NCBI RefSeq assembly: GCF_013122565.1
Contig: NZ_CP053258.1
DNA: 64,000 nucleotides
DNA from: Escherichia coli
Lineage (GTDB): Bacteria > Pseudomonadota > Gammaproteobacteria > Enterobacterales > Enterobacteriaceae
Strand: one strand, 5' to 3'
Part shown: positions 9,991-18,701 of the stretch, piece after piece
Numbering within the stretch: the first letter of the stretch is position 1
How the letters are laid out: each line of letters begins with the position of its first letter
Notes under the pieces: model-generated
The model's database searches: none
The model's input: only the letters and a program-made list of their open reading frames with translations
What the model was told of the DNA's origin: nothing
Translations under genes and position numbers: made by a program

Positions 9991-11678
9991 AAATTGTTTA
10001 TACACCTGATCGATCCTGGAGAGAAATCCCACCAGCAAAACCAGAACTTGGTGATGTTTTATCTCTGAGCAGTAATAATTGGGATGACTATGGATATAAA
10101 ACTACTCTAAACGCAAAAATATACATTAAGAATCAATCTATTTCATTTGATTTTTCAATTAAATTATTAATTGAAAATATCGATAACACGGCAATAAAGC
10201 TAGATGAATTATGTAAAGATGGATGGGATGGAATATTCCCCATCCCTAATACTAACTATATAGCTCTTCCATCTGATATTGATTTTTATCAAATACTCAT
10301 ATCTAAAATAGGTGAGGAATCAACAGTCAATCTTCTGAATGATCTGAACGATGCAGGTTTCAATAAAAATGTTTACCATAATGAAATATCTAACAGACTC
10401 ATAGAACAAGATGCCTTTAAAACGTCATTACTCCGAGAAAGTGGAGCAAATAAAGCCTATCTAGACGGTTATCTGATATTCCAAAATATTCACGCAGAAA
10501 TAAGAAACTTTCAGTTAAATATTTTAACGAAAAAAGGAGGTGTAAATAAGATACCATTTAAATTTGAATCTAATTTATTGCCTTATGATATTAATGTTAT
10601 TATTGGCCCGAATGGGATTGGTAAATCTCATTGCCTGAAATCACTTGTTGAATATTGGTTGCAAATAGGAATGGGGGAACAACGATTACTTGAAAAGAAT
10701 AAGCATACTCCATTTGATGAACGACCTAACATAAGTAAGCTTGTTCTTGTTTCTTATAGCCCTTTTGAAGAGTTCAGCCTAGATCTAGAAAAAGACAATT
10801 TACAAGATAAAAAGGCATATCAATATTTTGGTTTCAGGCAAATGAGAGATAATGGGACAATTGGTATCAGTCGAAACTTACCAGCTTTAAATTCAAGTGA
10901 GTCATTACTTGAAATGATATCTGATGATAAGAAATACCAATTCATTGAAAATCGAATAAATAAGCTCAACTCTGTCGATTCTGCACTCAAATCTGCTATT
11001 AGCTATGATTATTGTGTTCTAAGATTATCTCCAGAAGATAACTCATCTTATCTCGGGAAAGATATTGTCATAATTGATGGCGAAAAATATCTCCCTGCAG
11101 TAAATATTGTAAAATGGGCTGATCATTTAGATTTAATAAGGGATTCTATACTACTCAATGATGGTGTAATCTTTGTTAAAGATGGGGAAATTGTAAATCT
11201 TAGTTCTGGCCAACGATTATTTGTATATATAGCTATTAATGTTGTCGGTGCAATGAAAGAAAATAGCTTAATTGTGATTGATGAACCTGAATTATTTTTA
11301 CATCCTAACCTTGAAATAGAATTCATTGGGCTACTAAAAAAATTACTTAAATCATTTCGCTCTAAAGCTATTCTAGCTACTCATTCCCTATCTATCACAC
11401 GTGAAGTACCGTCAAAATGTGTACATATATTCCGCTACAAGGATGACGAATTTGAAATAGTCCCCCCGCCATTTGAAACATTTGGCGGTAATGTTCAGAG
11501 AATTTCTTCTTATGTTTTCGGCGATAAATCGATCTCTAAGCCTTTTGATGAATGGCTTGAGATGCAGCTTCAAGCTATTAAAGATCCTGAAAAATTAATT
11601 GAAATGCTAAATGAAGAAATTAATGAAGAAATAATCATGAAAATCATGAGTTTAGGGAAAAAGTATCATGGTCACTAA
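9987..11678 (+). CDS. ABC/SMC-like ATPase with ~200-aa N-terminal extension (PtuA-like; candidate defence ATPase, 563 aa)
   Basis: Walker A GPNGIGKS (aa 207-214, nt ~10604-10627); ABC signature-like LSSGQR (aa 405-410); Walker B LIVIDEPELFLHP (aa 428-440); H-loop ATHS; start overlaps hsdS stop; AT-rich. Confidence 0.75.
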   Translation: MKIVYTPDRSWREIPPAKPELGDVLSLSSNNWDDYGYKTTLNAKIYIKNQSISFDFSIKLLIENIDNTAIKLDELCKDGWDGIFPIPNTNYIALPSDIDFYQILISKIGEESTVNLLNDLNDAGFNKNVYHNEISNRLIEQDAFKTSLLRESGANKAYLDGYLIFQNIHAEIRNFQLNILTKKGGVNKIPFKFESNLLPYDINVIIGPNGIGKSHCLKSLVEYWLQIGMGEQRLLEKNKHTPFDERPNISKLVLVSYSPFEEFSLDLEKDNLQDKKAYQYFGFRQMRDNGTIGISRNLPALNSSESLLEMISDDKKYQFIENRINKLNSVDSALKSAISYDYCVLRLSPEDNSSYLGKDIVIIDGEKYLPAVNIVKWADHLDLIRDSILLNDGVIFVKDGEIVNLSSGQRLFVYIAINVVGAMKENSLIVIDEPELFLHPNLEIEFIGLLKKLLKSFRSKAILATHSLSITREVPSKCVHIFRYKDDEFEIVPPPFETFGGNVQRISSYVFGDKSISKPFDEWLEMQLQAIKDPEKLIEMLNEEINEEIIMKIMSLGKKYHGH

Positions 11679-12594
11679 GTTACAACTTCCCGAATATGAC
11701 TCTATTAAGGTACTCCGAACCATCATTTCAGAAAGAGAGAGATATAAAGATTTCTATGATAGCTTATCGAATGATTGGATAGCACATGTAGAAAGCTATT
11801 TGGAACATCATGGTGATCCACGCTTTATTACACCTCTCGACCTCTCTCTGTATATTTCAGAAGAATTAGTACAAAATGAAGAAGAGAAAACAACTGATGC
11901 CAATAGGCATATATCGGCGCAAGAAAGACTGACGCAAAAAAGGAAACAAACTCTAATTAATTTATACTCTCCTGCTGAGGGGAAAACTCCCTACGATATT
12001 CTTGATACTTTAAGACGAGGACATGGCCTGTTATTTTGCCCATGTTGTGGGGAACCAGGAAAGCCGACAACGTTAGACCATTATTTGCCTAAAACTATCT
12101 ATCCTGAATTAGCTATAATTATTGCTAACTTAACGCCGATGTGTAATGAATGTCAGCAGAATAAAAGTTCTGATTATTTTGATGAGGATGGTAACAAAAT
12201 TTACATACATCCTTATTTTGATCCTATTGAACAAGTTAATTTAATCATTGATATAGAAGAACCCTATGCTACTCCAACATTCAGGCTAAACATTACTGAG
12301 GATGGTGATGATAATGAGATTTATGAATTGCTAAGGCGACATATAAATGGTGTTAAATTTTTAGAGCGATTCGATGAGTTTTGTCGAAATGAATATATGG
12401 CATTATTGCGCACAATGTCATTAGAACGTCAAGATGCTCAACCGGATAGAGCGTCAAGAATAATTTGTCGATTCAAACGCCAATATGAGGGTCAGTCTCC
12501 AAATAGATGGGAGGCTATTTTCTATAGAGGGATATTGAATAATGCCGACCTACTTAATTATCTAGATCATGGAAACTTGCCTGATTTTACATAA
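11668..12594 (+). CDS. HNH-family nuclease (PtuB-like; candidate defence effector, 308 aa)
   Basis: HNH/zinc-finger pattern CPCC (aa 124-127), DH (137-138), N154, CNEC (159-162); start overlaps the upstream ATPase gene by 11 nt. Confidence 0.75.
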   Translation: MVTKLQLPEYDSIKVLRTIISERERYKDFYDSLSNDWIAHVESYLEHHGDPRFITPLDLSLYISEELVQNEEEKTTDANRHISAQERLTQKRKQTLINLYSPAEGKTPYDILDTLRRGHGLLFCPCCGEPGKPTTLDHYLPKTIYPELAIIIANLTPMCNECQQNKSSDYFDEDGNKIYIHPYFDPIEQVNLIIDIEEPYATPTFRLNITEDGDDNEIYELLRRHINGVKFLERFDEFCRNEYMALLRTMSLERQDAQPDRASRIICRFKRQYEGQSPNRWEAIFYRGILNNADLLNYLDHGNLPDFT

Positions 12595-12842
12595 GAGTTA
12601 AATATATTACATCAATCAAAAATTGATAACGATTTCATAATGATAAAATTAAAACAAAGGCATTTACTGTTATTTTAATTATATATATAAGACAGATACA
12701 ATGCCTTTTAATTTCTATAAGACTGTTTTTCTCATAAAAATCACTTTATATAGATTAAAAACACCATCCAATAAAGCATCATTCTACTTTCATAGATACT
12801 ATAATAACAAAATTAACATTATTTCATGTTTTTTAAGCAAGC

Positions 12843-13847
12843 TTAATAATAATTATAGTATAACCGTTTAATTGCCTTGTTTAATATAGTTTCATACTCA
12901 TTTTCTGACATATTCAACCAAGCAGTTATACTTTTTAATCCACTAGACTGATAATCTATAAACTCGCGCATTTTATTATAATCAATACTTACCTGCGTGT
13001 TTGTATCAGCTATAACTTTAGGTTCCCCATTACACCACCCTAAAATAAGAAAACTACTCATTGTGCTTGACATGTCACAAAAGAAAAAAAGATCGGGTAT
13101 TATTTTACCTAATTGCTTTGCATAACTGACTACCTCAGGTATTTCAAGCAACTCTCTGGGGTCATCATCATACCCCCCAAATAATATTTCAACCTTACCC
13201 TGTTGACTATAAGCAAATTCCTTTGTCACTTTTAGTCTTTTAAAAATGCTAATGACAAAACCAAAATCAAATCTTAAAACATCTTCTTTAGGAATAATTA
13301 GGCGAGTGATATCTATATTCTCATTAAATATTTTGTTTACACACCAAAACATTTCAAACTCAGAGTAATAATCAACTTCTTCAGGAAGAAGTGCCAATAT
13401 CTCATCTCTACTATCAATCAATTGACGTTTTGGAATATTAATCTTCCATGATTTTTTTGTTCTTTCAATTTTGATAGGATCAAAATATTCCCAAAACACT
13501 TCTTTTTTTTCAGGATTGCAAAGCAAAATCAAAACAGGTATTGGGCAGTTGGATAAATAATTAAAGTGCTTATTTTCACCTCTGTAAACATATCCCCACC
13601 GATTTTCTTCCGAAAAAAATGAAGCTCCACATTTGATTTGTACAGCAAGCATTTTCCCCGTTACGGCTCCATCTTCTCGTACTATTTCGATATAACCATC
13701 GATACCGAAATCCATTTCTTGATGGTTTATCTTAAAAATCCATCCAAGATTTTCATTAATTACTGATTTTACTATATTTACTCCAAGCTCACCTAATTGA
13801 GCTTCTTTTTGGTATTTTGGGAATTTATCTATCATAAAAAACCTCAA
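12843..13847 (-). CDS. hypothetical protein with DUF4365-like / PD-(D/E)xK nuclease-like N-terminal domain (334 aa)
   Basis: N-terminal segment DFGIDGYIEIV...LAVQIKCG fits a D...E.K nuclease core as I recall DUF4365; C-terminal half unassigned; strongly AT-rich; convergent with the ATPase-HNH operon. Confidence 0.5.
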   Translation of the reverse strand: MRFFMIDKFPKYQKEAQLGELGVNIVKSVINENLGWIFKINHQEMDFGIDGYIEIVREDGAVTGKMLAVQIKCGASFFSEENRWGYVYRGENKHFNYLSNCPIPVLILLCNPEKKEVFWEYFDPIKIERTKKSWKINIPKRQLIDSRDEILALLPEEVDYYSEFEMFWCVNKIFNENIDITRLIIPKEDVLRFDFGFVISIFKRLKVTKEFAYSQQGKVEILFGGYDDDPRELLEIPEVVSYAKQLGKIIPDLFFFCDMSSTMSSFLILGWCNGEPKVIADTNTQVSIDYNKMREFIDYQSSGLKSITAWLNMSENEYETILNKAIKRLYYNYY

Positions 13848-14079
13848 ATTTCAAAAAATATATTAACCGTAACTATCCATTTTAACTAGTTGGCATTTTT
13901 AGCGCCTGAATTTATCTCATGTATATATCTCGCAATGAACATTACAGTGATTAAGCATTAAAAATTATTAAACGAGAATGTTCATAATGATATTTATGTT
14001 TTAGACATTATTGTAAACATCCTTATATTCTACTCCATCCGTACTAGTAGAAGGTATTATAATAACAATAGTACTCAAC

Positions 14080-14109
14080 GACCAACTAGCCCTCTTGGGC
14101 TAGTTGGTC
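14080..14109. other. Perfect 13-bp inverted repeat with 4-nt loop just downstream of the integrase stop
   Basis: gaccaactagccc-tctt-gggctagttggtc read directly; possible int terminator or protein-binding site. Confidence 0.5.
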
Positions 14110-14150
14110 ATCATGATATTACAATCAACCAAAAAATAAAGGCATTCAAG

Positions 14151-15419
14151 TCACTCGCCATTACCCCGATTGATCTTCGCATAGTCAAACGGCGTAATCG
14201 CTCTCTCCCGATTGGCATCCAGAAAATCAGCCCACCACTGCAACATCAGCTTGCGTTCATCCAGGTGTTCCGCTTTATGGATATACGCCGCCCTCACTGA
14301 ATTGCGTTCCATATGGCTCATCTGCCTTTCCACCGCATCCTTCGACCATAGTCCTGACTCAATTAGCGAACTACAGGCCATTGTGCGGAAACCGTGACCA
14401 CAAACTTCAACCTTAGTGTCATAGCCCATCACCCGTAGCGCACTGTTTACGGTGTTCTCGCTCATGGGCTTACGCGGATCGTGATCGCCAATAAAAATCA
14501 GCTCATGCTCACCACAGAACTGCTTTATCTGCTTCAGGATCGCCAACGCCTGCTTTGAAAGTGGCACCAGATGCGGTGTACGCATCTTTGATCCTCGCTG
14601 AGAATGTTTAACATCAGGAATGGGTTCACGTTCCGGTGGAATCGTCCACATCGACGTGTCGAAATCTATCTCCGACCAGCGGGCAAAACGTAGCTCGCTG
14701 GATCGAATAAAGATAAGCAGGGTAAGTTCGGTTGCCCAACGGGTTAATCGCCTTCCAGTATAGCTGTCTATTTTCTGAAGCAGTTCTGGAATACGCTTTA
14801 ACTCCAGAGCCGGGCGATGCTGTCGCTTGCCAGAAGCAACGGCTCCCGCCATCTCTTGAGCCGGGTTATAATCAATCAGTCCACTTTGCACAGCATAACG
14901 CATGATAGCCGTGGTACGTTGTTGGAGACGGGAAGCCACCTCAAGACGTCCAGATATCTCTACGGCTTTAATGGGAAGTAACAAATCACGGGTACTCAAT
15001 TCAGCAATATTACGTGTCCCAATCGCCGGAAAGACATTATCCTCCAGACTCTTTTTTACACGATTAGCATGATCTTCCGACCATTTTTGGTTGGTCACGA
15101 GCCACTCTCTGGCAACCTTCTCGAAAGTAATAATCTCTTTCGCCTGCTCTTCTTTCACAACACGCTTATGTTCGCGTGGATCGATACCAGCAGCTACCAG
15201 CTTTCTGGCCTCCTCCCTTTTCTTCCTGGCATCTGCCAGTGAAATTTCGGGGTAAACACCAAACGCCATCACATGCTGCTTGCCACCAAAACGAAAACGA
15301 AATCGCCAATATTTGGAGCCATTAGCATGTACCAGTAAAAACAGGCCATCACCATCAGATAGCGGGTTTGCATTATCTTCAGATTTTGCCGAACGGACTT
15401 TAGTATCAGTCAGAGCCAT
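14151..15419 (-). CDS. P4-family tyrosine integrase (422 aa), apparently intact
   Basis: C-terminal catalytic region with HGFR and RAAYIH (His-x-x-Arg and Tyr motifs); N-terminus typical of P4-like integrases; adjacent to the tRNA 3' end. Confidence 0.9.
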   Translation of the reverse strand: MALTDTKVRSAKSEDNANPLSDGDGLFLLVHANGSKYWRFRFRFGGKQHVMAFGVYPEISLADARKKREEARKLVAAGIDPREHKRVVKEEQAKEIITFEKVAREWLVTNQKWSEDHANRVKKSLEDNVFPAIGTRNIAELSTRDLLLPIKAVEISGRLEVASRLQQRTTAIMRYAVQSGLIDYNPAQEMAGAVASGKRQHRPALELKRIPELLQKIDSYTGRRLTRWATELTLLIFIRSSELRFARWSEIDFDTSMWTIPPEREPIPDVKHSQRGSKMRTPHLVPLSKQALAILKQIKQFCGEHELIFIGDHDPRKPMSENTVNSALRVMGYDTKVEVCGHGFRTMACSSLIESGLWSKDAVERQMSHMERNSVRAAYIHKAEHLDERKLMLQWWADFLDANRERAITPFDYAKINRGNGE

Positions 15420-15618
15420 GATACTTCTCCTTCCATGTACCGCCGTGAGTATACAAACATTATCGAATCAGCATATATACTCAGTTATATACTCACAAGC
15501 GACTTGATGTGGGTTGACCCAGGTTGACTTCAGTTGAGGGGAAAATCGAGGAAAGCCTTGTGTAGCGCGGGTTTCAGGCATAAAAAAAGACCTCAGTTGA
15601 GGTCTATTTACATACTTT

Positions 15619-15703
15619 TGGTGCCGAAGGCCGGACTCGAACCGGCACGTATTTCTACGGTTGATTTTGAATCAACTGCGTCTACCGATTTCGCCACTTC
15701 GGC
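15619..15703 (-). tRNA. leuX: tRNA-Leu (anticodon CAA)
   Basis: Reverse complement reads GCCGAAGTGGCGAAATCGGTAGACGCAGTTGATTCAAAATCAACC...GGTTCGAGTCCGGCCTTCGGCACCA with CAA in the anticodon loop and 3' CCA. Confidence 0.9.
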
Positions 15704-15898
15704 ACTGAAGAGGTATGCGGAAAACGTTGTGGATTATACCTGTCGCACGCCACCATGCAAGCGCCAGCTTGCTCGCACCTCGCTAAGTGCTGAAATTTTC
15801 AGCATTGCATACAGCGATGTGTAACCTTTGTCACACTCCAGGCACCCCGCCCTGCCATGCTCTACACTTCCCAGACAACACCAGAGAAGGACCAAAAA

Positions 15899-16918
15899 AT
15901 GTCGATGATAAAAAGCTATGCCGCAAAAGAAGCGGGCGGCGAACTGGAAGTTTATGAGTACGATCCCGGTGAACTGAAGCCACAAGATGTTGAAGTGCAG
16001 GTGGATTACTGCGGGATCTGCCATTCCGATCTGTCGATGATCGATAACGAATGGGGATTGTCACAATATCCGCTGGTTGCCGGGCATGAGGTGATTGGGC
16101 GCGTGGTGGCACTCGGGAGCGCCGCGCAGGATAAAGGTTTGCAGGTCGGTCAGCGTGTCGGGATTGGCTGGACGGCACGCAGCTGCGGGCATTGCGATGC
16201 CTGTATTAGCGGTAATCAGATCAACTGCGAGCAAGGTTCGGTGCCAACAATTATGAATCGCGGCGGTTTTGCCGAGAAGTTGCGTGCGGACTGGCAATGG
16301 GTGATTCCACTGCCAGAAAATATCGACATTGAATCTGCTGGGCCGCTGTTGTGCGGCGGTATCACGGTCTTTAAACCACTGTTGATGCACCATATCACTG
16401 CCACCAGCCGCGTTGGGGTAATTGGTATTGGCGGGCTGGGGCATATTGCCATAAAGCTTCTGCACGCGATGGGATGCGAGGTGACAGCCTTTAGTTCTAA
16501 TCCAGCGAAAGAGCAGGAAGTGCTGGCGATGGGTGCCGATAAAGTGGTGAATAGCCGCGATCCGCAGGCACTGAAAGCTCTGGCGGGCCAGTTTGATCTC
16601 ATTATCAACACCGTCAACGTCAGCCTCGACTGGCAGCCTTATTTTGAAGCGCTGACCTATGGCGGTAATTTCCATACGGTCGGAGCGGTTCTCACGCCGC
16701 TGTCTGTTCCGGCCTTTACGTTAATTGCGGGCGACCGCAGCGTCTCTGGTTCTGCTACCGGCACGCCTTATGAGCTGCGTAAGCTGATGCGTTTTGCCGC
16801 CCGCAGCAAGGTTGCGCCGACCACCGAACTGTTCCCGATGTCGAAAATAAACGACGCCATCCAGCATGTGCGCAACGGTAAGGCGCGTTACCGCGTGGTT
16901 CTGAAAGCCGACTTCTGA
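15899..16918 (+). CDS. ahr: NADPH-dependent aldehyde reductase Ahr (zinc-type alcohol dehydrogenase)
   Basis: Translation [21 protein letters not shown]...GICHSD; RBS GAGAAGG upstream of ATG 15899; ORF-track start 15857 judged too far upstream. Confidence 0.9.
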
Positions 16919-17047
16919 TCCCTTTGCCGGGTGCCTGTCGCCCGGCACTTAAATCTCTTTGGAAGGCGTCTCGCAATCTGCTGAATTTAGCGGTGAAGAG
17001 TGCGCAGCCGTTGCCTATACTCCAGGCAGGAAACTGGAGGAAATCTC

Positions 17048-18550
17048 ATGAGCGAACCCCTGTTAATTGCCCGCACGCCGGACACAGAACTGCTTTTATT
17101 GCCGGGAATGGCGAATCGTCACGGGCTGATTACTGGCGCAACGGGTACGGGTAAAACCGTTACGCTGCAAAAACTGGCGGAGTCTCTATCGGAAATCGGT
17201 GTTCCGGTGTTTATGGCCGATGTGAAAGGCGATCTGACCGGCGTCGCGCAGGCAGGAACGGCGTCGGAAAAACTGCTCGCAAGGCTTAAAAATATCGGTG
17301 TCAACGACTGGCAACCGCATGCCAATCCGGTGGTGGTGTGGGATATCTTTGGCGAGAAAGGCCATCCGGTGCGGGCGACGGTTTCAGACCTGGGGCCGCT
17401 GTTGCTGGCGCGGCTGTTGAATCTCAACGATGTGCAGTCTGGCGTGCTAAATATCATCTTCCGTATTGCTGACGATCAGGGGCTGTTACTGCTCGACTTT
17501 AAAGATCTGCGGGCGATTACCCAGTACATCGGCGATAACGCCAAATCCTTCCAGAATCAGTACGGAAATATCAGTAGCGCATCGGTTGGTGCCATCCAGC
17601 GCGGATTACTGTCGCTGGAGCAACAAGGTGCGGCGCATTTCTTTGGCGAGCCGATGCTGGATATCAAAGACTGGATGCGCACCGATGCTAACGGTAAAGG
17701 CGTTATCAATATCCTCAGCGCCGAAAAGCTTTATCAGATGCCTAAACTGTACGCCGCCAGCCTGCTGTGGATGCTCTCGGAGTTGTATGAACAATTGCCG
17801 GAAGCGGGCGATCTGGAGAAACCAAAACTGGTGTTTTTCTTCGACGAGGCACATCTGCTGTTTAACGATACCCCGCAGGTACTGCTGGATAAGATTGAGC
17901 AGGTGATAAGGCTTATCCGCTCAAAAGGCGTGGGCGTCTGGTTCGTTTCGCAAAACCCGTCTGATATTCCGGATAACGTGCTCGGGCAGCTCGGTAATCG
18001 CGTTCAACACGCTTTGCGTGCTTTTACGCCTAAAGATCAGAAAGCAGTGAAGGCAGCAGCGCAAACCATGCGGGCCAATCCGGCGTTTGATACCGAAAAG
18101 GCGATTCAGGAACTGGGCACCGGCGAGGCGTTAATCTCGTTTCTTGATGTGAAAGGAAGTCCTTCAGTGGTGGAGCGGGCGATGGTGATTGCGCCTTGTT
18201 CGCGAATGGGGCCGGTGAAGGAAGATGAGCGCAATGGCTTGATTAATCACTCTCCGGTGTATGGCAAGTACGAGGATGAGGTGGACCGGGAATCCGCCTA
18301 TGAGATGTTGCAAAAAGGCTTTCAGGCCAGTACCGAGCAGCAAAATAATCCCCCCGCGAAAGGGAAAGAGGTGGCGGTGGATGACGGTATTCTTGGTGGA
18401 TTGAAGGATATTTTGTTTGGCACTATCGGACCACGCGGCGGGAAGAAAGATGGTGTGGTGCAAACAATGGCGAAAAGCGCCGCCCGCCAGGTGACGAATC
18501 AGATTGTGCGTGGAATGTTGGGGAGTTTGCTGGGGGGGAGAAAAAGGTAA
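17048..18550 (+). CDS. yjgR: P-loop NTPase YjgR (DUF853)
   Basis: Translation [17 protein letters not shown]... with Walker A GATGTGKT; 500 aa from ATG at 17048. Confidence 0.85.
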
Positions 18551-18571
18551 GCCAGGTGCGATTTGTCTTTG

Positions 18572-18610
18572 CCTGATGCGACGCTGGCGCGTCTTATCAT
18601 GCCTACACCA
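18572..18610. repeat. REP-like element
   Basis: gcctgatgcgacgctggcgcgtcttatcatgcctac matches the enterobacterial REP pattern. Confidence 0.5.
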
Positions 18611-18701
18611 CTGCAATATATTGGATTTTCATGATTTTTCAGGCATGAACGAAGCACACTTTGCTAATAATAATAAAGGGAGCTTTCGCTCCCTTGCTTG
18701 G

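Follow-up and report, generated by a model that had tools for sequence, protein, structure and literature searches.

The gene described here lies on the minus strand of a 64,000-nucleotide stretch of Escherichia coli DNA (contig NZ_CP053258.1, assembly GCF_013122565.1; hereafter the window, with positions counted from its first letter), within a genomic island integrated at the leuX tRNA gene, and it encodes a protein of 330 amino acids in which an N-terminal DUF4365 nuclease domain is joined to a C-terminal Crr6/DUF1817-like domain. On balance the gene is likely to encode a Divona-type nuclease that defends against phage as one polypeptide without partners; it forms part of the cargo of the leuX island, and its mechanism is presumably abortive. 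This interpretation is supported because the toxicity of a Photorhabdus relative, EAT16, needs the same D/D/Q/K residues that are found in the window protein, and because the domain architecture is that of Divona, a Vibrio cholerae integron cassette for which anti-phage activity has been reported. The gene is thus an intact E. coli copy and a probable member of the Divona/EAT16 family of DUF4365-Crr6 single-gene defence nucleases, and the original prediction for this locus, which from the letters alone had suspected a single-gene defence or abortive-infection function, agrees with what has been published from experiments with proteins built in this way.

Gene call and domain architecture

The gene and the features within or immediately before it are as follows.

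12843-13835, minus strand: coding sequence of the DUF4365 and DUF1817 protein (WP_250880431.1), 330 amino acids plus stop, with the ATG start at 13833-13835
13842-13845, minus strand: Shine-Dalgarno-like GAGG, 6 nt 5' of the ATG and overlapped by the TTG at 13847, read from the sequence
13395-13835, minus strand: DUF4365/DREN-like PD-(D/E)xK nuclease domain, residues 1-147 (Pfam, Protein Data Bank sequence matches, Foldseek and AlphaFold2)
13632-13712, minus strand: catalytic motif D42-x-G-x-D46...Q66-x-K68 with E40 just upstream, invariant in 36 homologues
12864-13370, minus strand: Crr6/DUF1817-like domain, residues 156-324 (Pfam, family alignment and AlphaFold2)
13152-13175, minus strand: signature of the C-terminal domain, G221-Y-D-D-D-P-R-E228, in which G221, Y222, D225, R227 and E228 are invariant in the 36-homologue alignment

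The original prediction had described an open reading frame (ORF) of 334 amino acids at 12843-13847 containing the peptide DFGIDGYIEIV...LAVQIKCG; the ORF, which begins at a TTG on the minus strand in the ORF list, is real and the peptide is present in its translation, but the start has to be moved. Translation almost certainly begins 12 nt further downstream, with the ATG at 13835 and not the TTG at 13847, because the GAGG precedes this ATG, because 330 amino acids is the length called by the NCBI Prokaryotic Genome Annotation Pipeline (PGAP) in close relatives, where the coding sequence has the same extent as 12843-13835, and because the resulting protein is identical to WP_250880431.1, which PGAP names “DUF4365 and DUF1817 domain-containing protein”. 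A chance ORF is excluded by the combination of a frame open for 1 kb at 31% GC and a Pfam match of E=1e-35.

The N-terminal 147 amino acids form a DUF4365 nuclease domain, DREN-like and of the Mrr/Hjc-type PD-(D/E)xK kind, with all of the catalytic residues intact. The match to Pfam DUF4365 (PF14280; E=1e-35, 123 bits) covers model positions 2-130 of 139 and residues 20-147 in the 334-residue numbering, which bears out the family named in the original prediction. The top sequence matches of the window protein in the Protein Data Bank (PDB) are the DREN-APAZ subunits of SPARDA (9qbq, 9qbp, 9jsb), with alignments that end at about residue 126. An AlphaFold2 (AF2) model built from a 36-sequence alignment has a predicted local distance difference test score (pLDDT) of 91.5, and when its N-terminal domain is submitted to Foldseek the DREN structures of SPARDA filaments (9qcc, 9jt2, 9vx6) are returned at E=1e-10 with probability 1.0, followed by the PD-(D/E)xK enzymes I-Ssp6803I, tRNA-splicing endonuclease, Hjc and RecU; the restriction-endonuclease-like core that had been suspected is therefore borne out by the fold. 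Across the 36-sequence family alignment E40, D42, D46, Q66 and K68 are unchanged.

The C-terminal ~190 amino acids had been left unassigned, yet about 185 of them make up a recognisable Crr6/DUF1817-like domain. Pfam Crr6 (PF08847, formerly DUF1817) matches the full-length protein with E=0.0019 and the C-terminal domain alone with E=0.00059, in model positions 3-77 of 150, and in an alignment of 47 such C-terminal domains the same model gives E<=1e-3 for 27 members and E<=0.1 for 42, the best value being 4.6e-9. CRR6 itself (slr1097; PF08847, NF038024) is a maturation factor for NdhI in chloroplasts and cyanobacteria, and the domain found here would be a distant relative of that factor and not its orthologue, because the score against the NCBIfam equivalog CRR6_slr1097 (19.7 bits) falls far under the 125-bit cut-off; the window domain also differs in matching the first half of the Pfam model, in being fused to a nuclease and in its mobile-element context. 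The AF2 model of the domain is of high confidence (pLDDT 92.6, predicted template modelling score 0.84), and a structure search of the PDB with it found no solved structural relative. No DNA-reading domain was recognisable in the window protein by Pfam or by structure search.

A search of the AlphaFold Database (AFDB) with the C-terminal domain model found the same domain in other fusions. Together with a G-Y-D-x-D-x-R-E...E motif it is fused to NucS-type nucleases in proteins of ~700 amino acids (our homologues P0152 and P0160; Pfam NucS_C 6.6e-8, NCBIfam NucS 8e-10), and a further group of fusions of ~430 amino acids (P0177, P0184, P0201, P0222) has an invariant CxxC...EH...CxxCNN pattern. 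The latter are probable HNH nucleases, a label given because of this pattern and one UniProt name; Pfam HNH_5 matches one member at E=9e-3, and searches of PADLOC, NCBIfam and the PDB with the group gave no matches. The domain also occurs as a tandem duplicate (P0144), as standalone proteins of ~160 amino acids and behind an unidentified N-terminus of ~330 amino acids (P0167, P0270). Across standalone and fused forms the tyrosine of the signature is invariant, and the G, D, R and E are each at least 90% conserved. Such modularity is the behaviour of what may be called a putative regulatory or sensor module for nucleases. One standalone Crr6-like gene is located 1 kb from an HNH gene (locus L049), which is anecdotal, and the neighbourhoods of the standalone proteins and of a Xanthomonas plasmid copy were uninformative, consisting of short contigs or hypothetical neighbours.

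Divona, EAT16 and the SPARDA nuclease

Divona was described by Darracq et al., who screened the cassettes of the chromosomal integron of V. cholerae N16961 for defence (bioRxiv 10.1101/2024.07.02.601686). It is a single cassette encoding DUF4365 fused to Crr6 (PF08847), which gave defence against phage 24 when placed beside the Pc promoter. For the systems active in V. cholerae, lysis or growth arrest without phage amplification was reported at a multiplicity of infection (MOI) of 10, with one named exception which is not Divona, and at low MOI the cultures carrying these systems survive. The same authors remark on homologues located “less than 20 kb away from integrases ... Divona in E. coli”, homology being defined by blastp at E<1e-5 and at least 50% coverage (bioRxiv 10.1101/2024.07.02.601686).

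The window gene and Divona have much in common: in both, one polypeptide carries DUF4365 at its N-terminus and Crr6 at its C-terminus, both are single-gene units on a mobile or exchangeable platform, and the window gene, with an integrase 315 bp away, fits what was said of the E. coli homologues. They differ in that the window gene has an upstream region of its own and is carried by a tRNA-leuX island, whereas Divona is a promoterless attC cassette, and the sequence divergence from the V. cholerae proteins is large. A profile of the divergent subfamily retrieved a V. cholerae “DUF4365 and DUF1817” protein (P0474), a chromosomal integron homologue which is 34% identical to the window protein (E=4e-47, 82% coverage, both domains); its cassette of ~1.17 kb is flanked by 127-nt V. 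cholerae repeats (VCRs), adjoins DUF645 cassettes and represents a non-pandemic allele. The AFDB search with the C-terminal domain model likewise returned a 345-residue DUF4365 protein of V. cholerae MO10 (A0A0X1L232; E=1.7e-8, template modelling score 0.78), with which identity in the C-terminal domain is about 22%. Strain MO10 belongs to the seventh-pandemic lineage. From these comparisons it is very probable, if not formally closed, that the window protein is a member of the Divona family. In the literature searched no mention of DUF1817 was found, and a link between Crr6 and defence was found in the Divona preprint alone.

EAT16 is a two-domain DUF4365 protein of Photorhabdus aegyptia which kills E. 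coli BL21 when induced, the toxicity being lost in three of four mutants among D42, D46, Q66 and K68 (Danov et al., Mol Syst Biol 2024, PMC11297309). One of our homologues (P0305, WP_082303719.1) is EAT16 itself, and it shares 43% identity with the window protein along 330 amino acids (E=4e-101), with the same two domains and with D42, D46, Q66 and K68 at the same positions, so that even the residue numbering is shared. A classifier predicted EAT16 to be a toxin associated with an extracellular contractile injection system (eCIS), and its authors read it as secreted (PMC11297309). Its gene (locus L055, 483-1502) is 685 bp from, and on the opposite strand to, a Photorhabdus virulence cassette (PVC) payload region (2187-11502: CNF1, CIF, Pvc16, AAA ATPase, CIS_TMP). 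Here the two cases part, for EAT16 stands beside a PVC/eCIS locus and is interpreted as an injected toxin, whereas the window is without eCIS genes; nor were any found around the other homologues examined, the Photorhabdus copy excepted.

The third point of comparison is SPARDA, in which a short prokaryotic Argonaute (pAgo) is paired with a DREN-APAZ subunit (PDB 9jsb/9jt2, 9qbq/9qcc; PMC12205087, PMC10810196). By hidden Markov model and by fold its nuclease domain is of the same family as that of the window protein, and the D...QxK active site is shared. On its own DREN is an inactive monomer, which turns into a collateral, non-specific nuclease only when the filament forces it into an I-Ssp6803I-like D2 tetramer (PMC12205087); by analogy the window nuclease probably works in the same manner, non-specifically and depending on assembly. 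SPARDA has in addition APAZ, an Argonaute partner and guide-RNA sensing, however, and the window protein has none of these but a Crr6-like domain instead. The PADLOC models that match the DUF4365 domain, namely PDC-M02 subunit A (E=1.5e-6, residues 41-116) and the pAgo-associated restriction endonuclease model Aga_REase-PNTD1-PNTD2 (E=5e-23), present the same picture: the matches are partial and confined to the N-terminal DUF4365 domain, and the remaining parts of those proteins, apparently with their partners, are missing. Membership of SPARDA was rejected, as there is no APAZ (Aga_REase aligns protein residues 11-142 with positions 4-128 of a 429-position profile, and the PDB matches end at ~126) and no adjacent Argonaute; no Argonaute-like gene was found among the window ORFs at 1-20000, which comprise WYL, GTPase, hsdRMS, ATPase, HNH, integrase and core genes.

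Taken together with these relatives, the following sequence of events can be proposed for a Divona-type protein. In the uninfected cell it would persist as a latent monomer, as isolated SPARDA DREN does; a cue of infection would be received, or passed on, by the Crr6-like domain, a protein-binding type of module, and cause the nuclease domains to self-associate; and the assembled domains would then degrade DNA, and possibly RNA, indiscriminately, halting the infected cell and the phage together and giving rise to the phenotype of growth arrest or lysis. The toxicity of EAT16 on over-expression would fit such a concentration-driven assembly.

Distribution, genomic setting and state of the allele

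Hundreds of full-length homologues (326-345 amino acids) were found, spanning Gamma-, Beta-, Alpha- and Deltaproteobacteria, Bacteroidota, Cyanobacteria, Planctomycetota, Verrucomicrobiota, Acidobacteriota and Nitrospirota. The DUF4365-Crr6 gene is an autonomous single-gene unit carried on chromosomal mobile platforms, without a conserved partner: in an all-versus-all comparison of the ORFs within 3.5 kb on either side of the gene at 36 species-representative loci, the commonest neighbouring ORF family was present at three. The platforms are diverse, as the Pseudomonas homologue is in a prophage/relaxase region, that of Burkholderia cenocepacia is a lone insertion between glutathione S-transferase and MarR genes, that of Citrobacter is in an integrative and conjugative element (ICE) beside a type IIG restriction-modification gene, and that of V. 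cholerae (P0474) is the VCR-bounded integron cassette. The description of the gene as an orphan consequently holds for its monocistronic format and not for its ancestry, since it belongs to a family of hundreds across many phyla. Searches with tblastn found no full-length copy in phages and one only in plasmids, in Pseudanabaena, and it is therefore neither a phage structural gene nor a typical plasmid gene; a search of PHROGs gave nothing meaningful. A phage-structural or housekeeping identity, which would have spoken against the original prediction, was thus not found, the CRR6 cut-off having also been failed.

The genes and signals surrounding the window gene are listed below.

14151-15419, minus strand: tyrosine integrase of the leuX island, a context gene
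15619-15703, minus strand: tRNA-Leu(CAA), leuX, found by ARAGORN, the integration site of the island
9987-12594, plus strand: PADLOC candidate system PDC-M01, ATPase plus HNH (PADLOC E=5e-239 and 1e-107), context outside the unit
13857-13885, minus strand: candidate sigma-70-type promoter, TTAAAA-17-TATATT, 9/12, from a consensus scan
14080-14109, minus strand: perfect 13-bp hairpin with a 4-nt loop, GACCAACTAGCCC-AAGA-GGGCTAGTTGGTC, 42 nt past the integrase stop codon

This setting is much as had been read from the letters. The gene and the ATPase-HNH pair converge, the HNH gene ending at 12594 on the plus strand, and it occupies the integrase-proximal slot, 315 bp from an integrase which itself abuts the leuX tRNA gene. 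It is also very AT-rich, with a GC content of 31.5% as against 49% in the integrase and 51.5% in the core part of the window. The candidate promoter is weak evidence for transcription of the gene from its own upstream region because the region is AT-rich: the sigma-70 consensus scan gave 15 sites against 10.7 expected in shuffled sequences, which is not above background. Between the integrase stop and the upstream region of the gene is the hairpin, which is likely to serve as a transcriptional insulator between the two genes; it is without a T-run and was not scored as canonical by the terminator scan, which gave nothing above background in the AT-rich DNA of the locus.

Within E. coli the gene is rare and mostly broken. 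Of 5426 complete genomes 51 have it, in every case on the chromosome, and the copies of 48 of these carriers are frameshifted, three being annotated as intact. Two homopolymer runs account for the disruptions.

13173-13178, minus strand: G6 run at codons 220-221, site of a net -1 frameshift in protein and DNA alignments, intact in the window
13503-13510, minus strand: A8 run at codon ~109, site of a +1 change (A9) in split alleles such as that of NZ_CP035832, intact in the window

The net -1 at the G6 run yields the common E. coli allele, a product of 234 amino acids which is cut inside the GYDDDPRE motif, and the change from A8 to A9 is found additionally in some disrupted copies. In a wider collection the 234-residue allele occurs on 609 contigs, compared to 97 for the commonest intact form of 330 amino acids. 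Disrupted copies include those of enterotoxigenic E. coli (ETEC) H10407 and of a sequence type 131 (ST131) strain, and the frameshifts are seen in the copy at locus L002 (12529-13234). The window allele is intact at both runs. Truncated or disrupted genes of the family (ORFs of 100-218 amino acids) are also present at four of the 36 species loci (L030, L032, L042, L043), and inactivation is therefore not confined to E. coli. Recurrent inactivation would be expected of a costly, potentially self-damaging defence gene but is also compatible with simple disuse. As truncation inside the signature motif is common and evidently tolerated in E. coli, it argues against a purely auto-inhibitory C-terminal domain and in favour of a role in activation.

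Several observations were made on the remainder of the island. On the plus strand hsdR, hsdM and hsdS continue straight into PDC-M01 (3704-12594; ATPase 9987-11678, HNH 11668-12594), and because there is an overlap of 4 nt between the hsdS stop and the ATPase start and one of 11 nt between the ATPase and HNH genes, hsdR-hsdM-hsdS-ATPase-HNH look like one transcription unit of five genes. The GC content is ~0.51 in hsdR and hsdM and 0.32-0.36 from hsdS onwards, and this drop at hsdS suggests a mosaic origin for the type I restriction-modification (R-M)/PDC-M01 block. The island reaches the left edge of the window with a minus-strand stretch (1-3216) comprising a secreted hypothetical protein (595-1380), a GTPase-family gene (1393-2406) and a WYL-domain regulator (2446-3216); a second copy of the leuX 3' end was searched for in the window and not found, and the far boundary of the island therefore lies outside it. 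Elsewhere in the window a second patch of low GC (~0.30) holds an ORF of 590 amino acids with tandem QKLNN/QELNN repeats (29839-31611, minus strand), with an ornithine-carbamoyltransferase-like gene (28778-29782) on one side and, on the other, a small gene (31734-32195).

Alternative functions and wider meaning

Of the alternatives to abortive defence, the one which survives best, although it is unlikely, is a restriction-like nuclease of the type IV or Mrr-like sort that recognises phage DNA (modified DNA, for instance), cuts it alone and leaves the host unharmed. The place of DUF4365 in the Mrr/Hjc branch of PD-(D/E)xK enzymes would suit it, as would the proximity of restriction-type systems and the survival of cultures with the V. 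cholerae systems at low MOI. However, over-expressed EAT16 kills phage-free E. coli by way of its catalytic residues, the V. cholerae systems arrest or lyse their hosts at high MOI (with the one exception named above, which is not Divona), DREN as the sole characterised DUF4365 nuclease is non-specific, and a domain that could read DNA is not recognisable in the window protein.

It is considerably less probable that the nuclease serves in the maintenance of the island, in an addiction-like manner, or in DNA processing, for instance as a resolvase, with no part in phage defence. The resemblance of the fold to Holliday-junction resolvases, the adjoining integrase and the toxicity on over-expression are what such a function might present; against this, the elements that carry the family differ widely in their mobility machinery, in B. 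cenocepacia the gene stands alone among housekeeping genes, a protein of this architecture has proved to be anti-phage, and the gene is frequently lost by frameshift while the island is retained.

Still less credible is a dependent role, in which the gene would add a functional third component to the neighbouring PDC-M01 pair or to the type I R-M genes. The genes are tightly linked in one AT-rich block and their arrangement is the same in all of the E. coli copies examined, but the gene is in the opposite orientation with its own Shine-Dalgarno sequence and upstream region, Divona functions as a single cassette, and E. coli lineages retain PDC-M01 while the DUF4365-DUF1817 gene is frameshifted. 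Furthermore, ATPase or HNH neighbours were not found beside homologues outside E. coli, either in the individual contexts (Pseudomonas, Burkholderia, Citrobacter, V. cholerae) or in the 36 species-representative genomes.

The function proposed for EAT16, a toxin that is exported against other cells, whether through a contractile injection system or by other means of secretion, has a very slim chance of applying here: the classifier prediction and the 685 bp that separate EAT16 from the PVC payload region speak for it, but EAT16 is on the strand opposite to the PVC operon, eCIS genes are absent from the window and from the surroundings of the other homologues examined, members of the family occur as integron cassettes or in the cargo of islands and ICEs, and the protein is without a signal peptide or known eCIS-targeting feature, its N-terminus being the nuclease core. 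A CRR6-type assembly factor, maturing an NdhI- or NuoI-like Fe-S subunit as a housekeeping-type function, can practically be dismissed, for the weak matches to Pfam Crr6 and NCBIfam CRR6_slr1097 that suggest it amount to 19.7 bits against a cut-off of 125 and about half of the Pfam model, for a domain that is fused to a nuclease, is carried on a mobile island and occurs in no more than 51 of the 5426 complete E. coli genomes. On the evidence given under each, the CRR6 housekeeping role, dependence on PDC-M01 and the eCIS toxin were rejected for this locus.

The interpretation of the gene as a Divona-type abortive defence nuclease should itself be considered with some caution, as a number of points weigh against it. 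The window protein by itself gives a weak match to Crr6 (E about 1e-3), along only half of the Pfam model. The link to the Divona family is drawn from the architecture, the homologue in a V. cholerae chromosomal integron, the fold match and the authors' remark on E. coli, and not from the N16961 sequence itself. The abortive phenotype was reported for the tested set collectively and not dissected for Divona, and the authors of EAT16 interpret their protein as a secreted eCIS toxin, not as a defence gene. Oligomerisation, the trigger and sensing by the C-terminal domain are extrapolated from SPARDA and from the modularity of that domain, just as the defence role of the window allele is predicted from its homologues, and the high rate of pseudogenisation could mean that E. 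coli gains little from the gene.

With these reservations, the results allow a “DUF/DUF” gene of a clinically common leuX island (ETEC H10407, ST131 lineages) to be annotated as a probable Divona-type abortive-infection nuclease, the window allele being one of the rare intact copies where most of those sequenced from E. coli are frameshifted at the two homopolymer runs. The family and its presence near E. coli integrases were already known; no mechanism has been published. Two literatures are also joined, that of EAT16 as an “eCIS toxin” and that of Divona as an integron defence cassette, since both concern the same protein family, and for this reason the classification of EAT16 as an injected toxin may need to be re-examined, with the protein considered instead as the product of a defence gene.

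A lead on the role of the Crr6-like domain is provided by its partners, which represent at least two and probably three nuclease folds, and by the fact that its loss is tolerated. It is possible, though offered tentatively, that the Crr6/DUF1817-like domain is a portable sensing or activation module for nucleases and that Divona-type proteins belong, as one branch among others, to a wider class of single-chain abortive-infection nucleases, ‘Crr6-gated’ and so far undescribed, in which case the CRR6 assembly factor of plants and cyanobacteria would be related to a domain of prokaryotic conflict systems.

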